Position numbers and translations under genes: made by a program. From the NCBI RefSeq assembly GCF_016903815.1, contig NZ_CP069973.1: DNA of 64,000 nucleotides; one strand, 5' to 3'. This DNA comes from Escherichia coli (lineage in GTDB: Bacteria > Pseudomonadota > Gammaproteobacteria > Enterobacterales > Enterobacteriaceae). The notes below the pieces were generated by a model that had not been told where the DNA came from, made no database searches, and saw only the letters and a list, made by a program, of their open reading frames with translations. Below are positions 60,611-63,460 of the stretch, one piece after another (position 1 is the stretch's first letter; each line of letters begins with the position of its first letter).

Positions 60611-63460
60611 ATGTCAAAAAAAATATCAGCCATTGCTTATAACTCATTATATGTCAACATGGGTCACTATAACGGAAGCAGTTGAGATCACTACCAAAGC
60701 CATAAAACAAAAAATTACTCCTAGCGATATTTATCGTCATGCCTTGAGTGGCAACATCCTACTATCGGTCTATTTCCAGTCTCCTGTGATACTTAAGAAG
60801 ATACAAACTTTTAATGGAAAAATAAAATTCAGGCAGTTTGTGGGAGACCTACTTGATAAACTATGCATGCTTGACAGGGACGGTTTTATTTATGGTCAAA
60901 ATTTAAGACTCTGTACAGAAGCTAGATATATTTGTCCTGTGCAACAAATTATAGATACCCCCCTGTTACGCAAACTCAACCAGTTTCGTACGTTTGTTCG
61001 TAATGTCCGCCCGGGTGATGAACTGGATGTCCCGGCACAAGTTAGTGAAAAAAATTTAACCCCGCCGCCGGGTAACAGCAGTGGCAACCTTGAGCAACAG
61101 ATAGCCAGTACTTCACAGCTAATTGGATCTCTGCTCGCCGAAGATATGAACAGCGAGCAAGCGGCAAACATAGCACGTGGATGGGCCTCTTCTCAGGCTT
61201 CAGGGGTAATGACAGACTGGTTAAGCCGCTTCGGTACCGCAAGAATCACGCTGGGCGTGGATGAAGATTTCAGCCTGAAGAACTCCCGTGACGGCAACCC
61301 TCGAAAATGGCGATTCGATGCAACAAACAGTGAACTATGTGCCGAACGTCACGAATGCTGAAATCACGCTGGCAGCCTCGAAGGACCCGGTGATTGCCGA
61401 CAATAACGATCTCACGACACTAACAGCACCGTCGCTGATACAGAGGGCAATGCGATAGCCAACACTGAGGTAACATTTACTCTACCGGAAGATGTGAAGG
61501 CGAACTTCACGCTGAGCGATGACGACAAAGCGGTTACTGATGCCGATGGCAAAGCGAAAGTCACGCTGTAAGGTACAAAAGCAGGCGCTCATACCGTGAC
61601 AGCATCGATGGTTGGCGGTAAGAGTGAGCAGTTGGTGGTGAACTTTACTGCGGATACGCTCACTGCGCAGGTTAATCTTAACGTTACCGAGGACAATTTC
61701 ATCGCCAATAACATTGGAATGACCAGGCTACAGGCAACAGTGACTGATGGAAACGGCAACCCAGTAGAAGGTATAAAAGTTAATTTCCGTGGAACCTCCG
61801 TCACGCTAAGCAGCACCAGCGTTGAAACGGATGATCAGGTTTTCGCTGAAATTCTTGTGACAAGCACCGAGGTCGGACTAAAAACAGTTTCAGCCTCTCT
61901 GGCAGATAAACCTACTGAAGTCATCTCGCGATTACTGAATGCCAAGGTAGATGTTAATTCTGCGACGATTACCAGTCAGGAGATACCTGAAGGTCAGGTC
62001 ATGGTCGCACAAGACATAGCAGTTAAAGCTCACGTTAACGACCAGTTTGGCAACCCGGTGACGCATCAACCCGCGACATTCAGTGCAGCGCCATCCTCGC
62101 AAATGATCATCAGCCAGAATACGGTCTCTACTAATACGCAGGGAGTAGCCGAGGTCACCATGACGCCTGAAAGAAACGGCTCGTATACTGTAAAAGCATC
62201 CCTAGCGAATGGAGCTTCACTTGAGAAACAACTGGAGGCTATTGATGAAAAACTGACACTCACGTCCAGTCCGCTTATCGGTGTCAATGCTCCTAAAGGC
62301 GCTACTCTGACGGCAATGCTAACCTCTGCAAATGGCACTCCAGTGGAGGGTCAGGTCATCAACTTTAGCGTAACGCTAGAAGGTGCGACGTTAAGTGGCG
62401 GAAAAGTGAGAACCAACTCTTCAGGTCAGGCTCCAGTCGTTCTGACCAGCAATAAAGTCGGTACATATACGGTGACTGCATCGTTCCATAACGGCGTCAC
62501 AATACAGACACAGACAACCGTGAAGGTTACTGGCAACCCAAGCACCGCACATGTTGCTAGCTTTATCGCTGAACCGTCGACTATCGCCGCCACCAACAGT
62601 GATTTAAGTACCTTAAAGGCAACGGTTGAGGATGGCAGTGGTAACCTGATCGAAGGTCTCACTGTGTACTTCGCCTTAAAAAACGGCTCCACCACATTAA
62701 CGTCATTAACAGCGGTGACCGATCAAAACGGAATCGCGACAACAAGCGTGAAAGGAGCGATAACGGGGAGCGTCACTGTAAGCACAGTCACAAGCGCAGG
62801 TGGAATGCAAACAGTAGATATATCGCTAGTGGCAGGCCCAGCAGACGCCTCGCAGTCCATCCTTAAGAACAACCAGTCATCACTGAAAGGGGACTTTACC
62901 GATAGTGCTGAGCTACATCTTGTTCTGCACGATATATCAGGCAATCCGATCAAAGTTTCTGAAGGGATGGAATTTGTGCAATCAGGTACAAACGTGCCCT
63001 ATATGAAAATTAGCGCAATTGATTACACTCAAAATATCAACGGTGATTACAAAGCTACTGTTACAGGAGGCGGAGAGGGTATCGCAACGCTGATCCCCGT
63101 ATTGAATGGTGTTCATCAGGCGGGCCTGAGTACCACGATAGAATTCATTAGCGCGGAAACCAGACCAATGACCGGTACAGTGTCAGTGAATGGTGCAAAC
63201 CTACCGACAGCTTCATTCCCTTCGCAGGGATTTACCGGGGCGTATTATCAGTTGAATAATGACAACTTTGCACCAGGAAAAACGGCGGCTGATTATTCGT
63301 TTCAAACTCGGCCTCTTGGGTAGGCGTTGATGCTACTGGTAAAGTGACATTCAAAAATGACGGTGATAGCAATACTGTAATAATCACAGCGCCCCCAAGA
63401 TCCGGTGGTGCTATTTACCAAACAGTTCCGCATGAATCGCGTTCGGTGTGACTATGATCA
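60611..63460 (+). pseudogene. yeeJ: decayed inverse-autotransporter (intimin/invasin-like) adhesin gene, yeeJ-like, with multiple lesions
   Basis: ATG 60611 with AAGGAG RBS hits a stop after 24 codons. An overlapping frame carries a LysM-like segment (LRKLNQFRTF...DELDVPAQV...GWASSQASG). An out-of-frame deletion junction lies near 61285, a TAA nonsense codon at 61568-61570 and frameshifts near 61435 and 63290. The 61596-63323 ORF encodes tandem Big_1-type repeats. Assignment to yeeJ is from memory. Confidence 0.6.

Follow-up and report, generated by a model that had tools for sequence, protein, structure and literature searches.

Remains of the adhesin gene yeeJ behind the high-pathogenicity island of Escherichia coli: a probable right-border deletion scar

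The window analysed here, a stretch of 64,000 nt of the E. coli chromosome, contains in order the fli genes, asnT, the Yersinia high-pathogenicity island (HPI), yeeJ and yeeL (Table 1). The island sits at asnT, carries the yersiniabactin genes and has fyuA at its right end, as in a normal-type HPI. On the far side, yeeL, which codes for a family-9 glycosyltransferase (GT9), runs off the end of the window. In strain 7/2, which is identical to the window in this region, the GT9 gene is followed by shiA and amn in the same order as in K-12. The position of yeeJ between asnT and yeeL-shiA-amn was thus retained, making the gene an ortholog by position. In the existing PGAP/RefSeq annotation, a 237-aa "inverse autotransporter beta domain-containing protein" stands here in front of a pseudogene named "Ig-like domain-containing protein". 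The latter is flagged in strain 7/2 as frameshifted, with an internal stop and with both the N- and the C-terminus missing.

Table 1. Features between asnT and yeeL, in window coordinates; yeeJ positions refer to the K-12 gene.
Feature	Position	Strand	Description	Identity to K-12
tRNA-Asn (asnT)	29784-29859
HPI genes int, ybtS-ybtA, irp2, irp1, ybtUTE, fyuA	between asnT and 59959
fyuA stop codon	ends at 59959
Non-coding HPI DNA 3' of fyuA	59960-60610	+	still island; collinear with the ICE-type HPI of strain ECKH-505
5' piece of the first ICE-module gene after fyuA	60611-60965	+	5' 355 nt (118 codons); gene for a 308-aa hypothetical protein, WP_000039790.1 type
Junction 1 (HPI right-border deletion)	60965/60966	+	in-frame fusion, ICE gene codon 118 to yeeJ codon 93 (nt 277)
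yeeJ, first piece	60965-61287	+	yeeJ nt 276-607	95.3%
9-nt in-frame deletion	~61000	+	O170:H18 allele keeps these 9 nt
Junction 2	61287/61289	+	loss of ~3.69 kb inside the gene (yeeJ nt 608 to ~4299), out of frame
yeeJ, second piece	61289-61762	+	yeeJ nt 4301-4775 (Ig repeat region)	94.7%
1-nt deletion	~61427	+	GCAACC to GCACC
Nonsense codon TAA	61569-61571	+	reads AAA (K1528 of YeeJ) in K-12 and the five other remnant alleles
yeeJ, third piece	61733-63408	+	yeeJ nt 5058-6734 (distal Big_1/Invasin_D3 repeats)	92.5%
30-nt overlap of blastn HSPs	61733-61762	+	aligns to K-12 nt 4746-4775 and 5058-5087
3-nt deletion	~62262	+
1-nt deletion in T run	63300-63302	+	T4 to T3
3-nt insertion	~63364	+
Junction 3	63409-63427	+	19 nt unalignable to K-12, in place of ~450 bp
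Backbone 3' of yeeJ	63428-64000	-	includes 3' part of the family-9 glycosyltransferase gene (yeeL)	96.3%

The intact yeeJ of K-12 (7077 nt, 2358 aa) was used as reference, and the window was compared with it by blastn, tblastn and base-level pairwise alignment. A first-pass annotation of the same letters had seen in the locus an inverse-autotransporter gene of the yeeJ type that several lesions had turned into a pseudogene, beside an acquired island, and the comparison bore this out. The remnant occupies 60966-63408 and amounts to ~35% of the K-12 gene, in three collinear pieces which by tblastn lie in three different reading frames. When the 30-nt overlap between the second and the third piece is divided, 61289-61745 corresponds to yeeJ nt 4301-4758 and 61746-63408 to nt 5071-6734. 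From 63428 on, the window matches K-12 DNA ~110 bp past the yeeJ stop codon. The way to the native stop is interrupted by three frame changes, giving four frame segments, and by one nonsense codon. The promoter, the start codon, the signal peptide, most of the LysM region and the C-terminus are absent from the remnant. Also absent are ~80% of the beta-barrel and some ten Ig-like repeats, removed at junction 2, where the tblastn frame changes from 2 to 3. Junction 3 deletes yeeJ nt ~6735-7077 together with ~110 bp downstream, i.e., the last ~112 codons, the native stop codon and intergenic DNA.

The base-level comparison with K-12 yeeJ recovered all four of the lesions named in the first-pass annotation within 1-10 nt. 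The out-of-frame joint expected near 61285 was located at 61287/61289, where the sequence passes from yeeJ nt 607 to ~4300, and the supposed loss of the beta-barrel and proximal repeats, several kb in size, is the ~3.69-kb deletion. The frameshift placed near 61435 is the 1-nt deletion at ~61427, the in-frame TAA given as 61568-61570 lies one position further on, and the frameshift near 63290 is the shortened T run at 63300-63302. The list lacked the 3' deletion at 63409-63427, the difference of a 312-nt unit, and the link to the right-border deletion of the HPI. Microhomology at both large junctions was at most 1 nt, so neither of them is clearly repeat-mediated. Only the 312-nt unit difference is, as indicated by the 30-nt overlap. 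This overlap would mark the in-frame, repeat-mediated loss of one Ig repeat unit of 312 nt, and could equally reflect a gain of the unit in K-12.

The first 355 nt of the region, 60611-60965, had been taken as part of a LysM-like N-terminal piece of the adhesin. They belong to the island. In a base-level alignment to the ICE-type HPI of strain ECKH-505 (L004, 9001-9365) these 355 nt were collinear and homology ended exactly at 60965; ECKH-505 matched only 60600-60965 of the window, and its 308-aa gene starts at the equivalent of 60611. What stood of the earlier description is the stretch from 60966 on, which is yeeJ aa 93-203 and comprises the tail of the LysM region, a linker and the first ~60 positions of the beta-domain profile. 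The true N-terminus of yeeJ is gone: yeeJ nt 1-276 and the region upstream are missing, with the start codon, the Sec signal peptide and aa 1-92. The fragment aa 93-203 gave no LysM match at E<=10, and the LysM-like label was dropped for the retained part. In K-12 itself, the only LysM match within aa 1-150 was a weak one (aa 78-99, E=0.013), under the curated cut-off.

Beyond the 308-aa gene, the ICE of ECKH-505 continues with AlpA, a VirB-type T4SS, a coupling protein and MobC, and a right-hand (attR) copy of the 17-bp asnT direct repeat is found ~34 kb past fyuA in the ICE-type locus. In the 64 kb of the window this repeat, CCAGTCAGAGGAGCCAA, occurs once, at 29844-29860, which is asnT itself, even with two mismatches allowed. 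The loss of the right-hand repeat and of the conjugative module is again as in a normal-type HPI. Since collinearity with the ICE reaches to 60965 and a single repeat copy is left, junction 1 was read as a deletion that removed what followed in the ICE, including the transfer module and attR, and then the yeeJ promoter with codons 1-92 of yeeJ (nt 1-276). For the size and content of the deleted ICE part we relied on a single ICE-type island, that of ECKH-505, which lies at another tRNA-Asn copy, adjoins ldtA-cobTSU and stands in for the true ancestor.

Because junction 1 is in frame, it creates a chimeric ORF, and PGAP named this ORF after its short match to IAT_beta. The match covers only positions 3-64 of the 279 positions of the Pfam profile (PF11924, 30 bits), as compared with positions 2-279 in K-12 YeeJ (377 bits). 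An Ig-like passenger array is still present: four Big_1 stretches (E=1e-60) and Invasin_D3 (E=5e-37) were found in 61596-63320, where K-12 YeeJ has 14-15. A program-called ORF of 575 aa, 61596-63323, falls by the segment table within the distal piece 61746-63408. One could therefore regard the segments as one or two intact smaller functional genes, i.e., the chimeric protein of 237-249 aa, the 575-aa Ig-repeat ORF, or both. PGAP does call the chimeric ORF a protein (WP_001323489.1 here, WP_000039786.1 type in strain 536), the fusion of the ICE gene and yeeJ is in frame, and the 575-aa ORF with its four Big_1 domains is open in the window. We nevertheless judged this very unlikely and already largely refuted. 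The chimeric ORF is shifted at codon 4 by an A7/A8 difference in three of the six alleles compared below, and is frameshifted a second time in JE86. The Ig ORF is broken in four of the five other alleles by different stops or by a 7-nt deletion, and its upstream boundary in the window is a lineage-specific TAA. Without signal peptide and beta-barrel the Ig domains could not reach the surface. Promoter-like sites in 59900-63700 numbered five, as against 7.5 expected from shuffled sequence, a count that by itself says little, and the ratio of nonsynonymous to synonymous changes among alleles is raised.

No functional adhesin can be made from the remnant, and the "inverse autotransporter beta domain-containing protein" of 237-249 aa in the PGAP annotation is a chimeric artefact which should not be counted as an adhesin. 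There is a narrower reading for the A7 alleles, e.g., that of strain 536, in which the fusion of 249 aa, with 118 ICE codons and YeeJ residues 93-203, would be expressed from the signals of the island gene and would have acquired a function. It might then, for instance, interfere, as a truncated protein in the cytoplasm or periplasm, with other inverse autotransporters. We hold this to be highly improbable; if true, it could explain why annotation pipelines keep calling that ORF.

The distribution of the remnant was surveyed in 5426 complete E. coli genomes. The region 60600-63470 was found, at >=80% coverage and always at >=98.5% identity, in 2038 of the 5426 (38%), whereas the 3' end of fyuA with the DNA downstream was found in 2266 and the adjoining 58960-60560, at >=80% coverage, in 2247, always under or adjoining fyuA. 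The remnant is thus present in ~90% of the fyuA-positive genomes. Two genomes of the other ~10%, which are without the full remnant, were inspected; one was ICE-type and one carried an IS66 insertion. Carriers included strain 536, an O6:K2:H1 strain and many human, animal and environmental isolates. Near-full-length yeeJ of the K-12 type was found in 1664 of the 5426 genomes. The best intact yeeJ was only 93.6% identical to the remnant and nothing lay in between, so the distribution is cleanly bimodal, with remnants at >=98.5% and intact genes at <=93.6%. An intact allele nearer to the remnant than that of K-12, by which the changes could be polarised, was sought among these genomes and none exceeded 93.6%; the UMN026-type variant reached ~86%, and UMN026 is reported to have its intact yeeJ in another setting.

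These counts also bear on the quality of the assembly. Frameshifts and a stop codon in a repetitive gene may be errors of sequencing or assembly, upaH in CFT073 being an earlier example. Ig-repeat genes misassemble easily, Martinez-Gil et al. (2017, Sci Rep 7:11326, PMC5595812) give this caveat for some frameshifted yeeJ alleles, and two of the small lesions here sit in homopolymer runs (A8 and T3). However, at least 30 independent complete genomes, e.g., strain 7/2, are 100% identical to the window over the 4.1 kb of 59900-64000. The exact 61-mer around the TAA was found in 177 genomes (a further 2033 matched at 95-99% identity, with one mismatch each among the matches listed), the haplotype with the T-run frameshift was found exactly in 307, and the large junctions in 2038. 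Moreover, the TAA is a substitution and not a homopolymer error. The chance that the lesions are artefacts appeared vanishingly small, and we proceeded with them as real. The same wreck in 38% of the genomes makes the feature real but ordinary.

Six remnant alleles from different lineages, including those of strain 536 and a bovine strain, were aligned. There were two kinds of lesion. Firstly, five were common to all six alleles: junctions 1, 2 and 3, the 1-nt deletion at ~61427 and the repeat-unit difference. The same right-border deletion into the backbone is present in six alleles of different lineages and in the 2038 genomes, which is the pattern of the normal-type HPI. Secondly, other lesions were lineage-specific. 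The TAA and the T3 run were restricted to the window allele among the six. The A8 run at 60616-60623, which shifts the frame after codon 4, was found in the window allele, JE86 and O170:H18, while the ICE and strain 536 have A7, and JE86 has an extra A in the ICE-derived part. The nonsense codon E2097* was found in strains 536, O170:H18 and AR_0089, and G2028* in B1_2 and AR_0089; B1_2 also has the 7-nt deletion, and ESC53083 has an IS66 insertion. The progressive decay suggested by the first-pass annotation is thus visible in the split between shared and lineage-specific lesions. Among the six alleles no intermediate was present that would order the shared lesions.

Over 804 comparable codons, NG86 dN/dS was 0.28 in comparison with K-12 and 0.4-1.0 among the remnant alleles. 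Variants among the remnants comprised 28 nonsynonymous and 3 nonsense changes as against 15 synonymous, while the comparison with K-12 gave 77 against 83 (Fisher p=0.029). With six alleles and a modest significance, these sequence data fit a gene that diverged while it still worked and afterwards came under relaxed constraint.

Taken together, the region very probably represents the fixed right-hand scar of the HPI and the dead remains of the adhesin gene yeeJ, brought about by a right-border deletion and subsequent decay. As an integrative conjugative element, the HPI would have integrated at asnT, just upstream of yeeJ. Judging from ICE-type islands, a single illegitimate deletion would then have joined codon 118 of the first ICE gene after fyuA to codon 93 of yeeJ, taking the transfer genes and attR with it. 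Such a deletion would immobilise the island and at the same time strip yeeJ of its promoter, start codon and signal peptide, and since the product could no longer be exported, the gene would have been left to neutral drift. To this neutral phase would belong the out-of-frame deletion of 3.69 kb, the 1-nt frameshift and the 3' deletion, and the gene has one Ig repeat fewer than in K-12. The whole haplotype would later have spread with the island among E. coli lineages by homologous recombination of large fragments; Schubert et al. (2009, PLoS Pathog 5:e1000257, PMC2606025) report that the HPI and its flanks spread together by recombination. Different nonsense and frameshift mutations would finally have been added in each lineage, among them the A8 run, the T-run frameshift and the TAA in the lineage of the window.

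It could be argued that yeeJ decayed independently of the island, with deletions that came before the HPI or regardless of it, and that their adjacency is a coincidence. HPI-negative strains do have yeeJ broken by IS elements, other islands and point mutations (PMC5595812), and the internal 3.69-kb deletion and the 3' deletion could in principle precede junction 1. Yet the 5' breakpoint of the remnant is one island/yeeJ junction and is by definition associated with the island. Furthermore, there is essentially no remnant except behind fyuA, with 2038 carriers as compared with 2266 genomes positive for fyuA, and no intact allele is more than 93.6% identical to it. We accordingly consider coincidental adjacency improbable in the extreme, and a decay that followed the right-border deletion remains our reading.

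In outline the feature is already known from Schubert et al. (2009) and Martinez-Gil et al. (2017), and is annotated as a pseudogene by PGAP; the breakpoints and counts given here are refinements. Its importance goes little beyond annotation hygiene. Still, the scar is an exact and convenient marker of a single ancestral acquisition and immobilisation of the HPI in E. coli, and it explains why most extraintestinal pathogenic E. coli are without the YeeJ biofilm adhesin. Phylogenetic tracing of the island's recombinational spread could make inexpensive use of the secondary lesions, which differ by lineage.

Intact yeeJ was reported in 40% of 96 genomes by Martinez-Gil et al., who used CFT073 as a yeeJ-negative comparator and attributed many truncated yeeJ alleles to the asnT/HPI hot spot (PMC5595812). 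The remnant shares with the K-12 YeeJ described there the orthologous locus between asnT and yeeL-shiA and the Big_1/Invasin_D3 repeats, with 92-95% nucleotide identity over the retained 2.46 kb. It differs in being reduced to ~35% of the gene, broken into three pieces in three frames, without start, signal peptide, LysM, complete barrel and C-terminal domain. Other disrupted yeeJ alleles, caused by IS insertions, other islands at asnT or point frameshifts, are further cases of the frequent inactivation of this gene at an integration hot spot, but they are sporadic and lineage-restricted, whereas the allele described here is one ancient haplotype in 38% of complete genomes. According to Schubert et al. 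(2009), a unique right-border deletion into the backbone is present in all ECOR HPIs except that of ECOR31, which holds an ICE-type progenitor of the HPI. With the normal-type HPI described there the window agrees in the insertion at asnT, in fyuA as the last intact island gene, in the lost attR/direct repeat, in the deletion into the adjoining backbone and in an identical pattern across phylogroups. No material difference from that description was apparent, and what is added here are the base-level breakpoints, the internal and 3' deletions of yeeJ and the counts in 5426 genomes.

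In strain 7/2, the complete genome whose annotation was used for the window, the integrase gene of the Yersinia high-pathogenicity island (HPI) is listed as a pseudogene, frameshifted and just about 916 nt long. Its position was carried over, the two sequences being collinear with identical tRNA coordinates. The mobility apparatus of the HPI therefore looks dead at both island ends in the window's lineage. The conjugative, ICE-type HPI of strain ECKH-505 is located at an asnV-like site, adjoining ldtA-cobTSU, and carries defence-type cargo. Ahead of its exact 17-bp repeat, this locus has a second, degenerate copy, which hints at two elements in tandem.

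Features with their coordinates (L013 and L005, loci of strains ECKH-505 and C325)
Feature	Sequence	Coordinates	Remarks
IS200C transposase gene	window	12930-13388	between yodD and yedP
IS1 element	window	21253-21950	within ~20760-22694; strain 7/2 annotation, coordinates identical
HPI integrase pseudogene	window	30021-30936	adjoins asnT; strain 7/2 annotation
Homopolymer A run	window	60616-60623	
yeeL, family-9 glycosyltransferase gene	window	63579-64000	minus strand; cut by window end
Defence-type cargo	L013	20176-31564	restriction endonuclease, ABC-three-component system, retron Eco8 effector and reverse transcriptase
17-bp repeat, degenerate second copy	L013	31826-31842	
17-bp repeat, exact copy	L013	34191-34207	
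Region with a divergent UMN026-like yeeJ allele (~86%)	L005	4367-10796	5' end truncated

Elsewhere in the window, IS1 is flanked by an HD-domain gene and hchA, and the 5'-truncation of both genes in the strain 7/2 annotation suggests an IS1-associated deletion. At the start of the chimeric ORF, in which the 5' end of an ICE gene is fused to yeeJ, the A run is polymorphic (A7/A8) among alleles of the decayed yeeJ remnant. This moves the ORF start, so that the product given by PGAP is 249 aa long for strain 536 and 237 aa long for strain 7/2, which has the window's haplotype.

Downstream of the remnant, strains that share the window's remnant haplotype have an annotated intact yeeL of 1053 nt. 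The K-12 copy contains an internal stop and is a pseudogene; in some strains otherwise identical to the window haplotype yeeL is split by IS1. The inactivation of yeeJ in strain C325 differs in kind from the window's remnant, since there an IS3-family element truncates the 5' end of a UMN026-like allele, adjoining another, integrase-bearing island.
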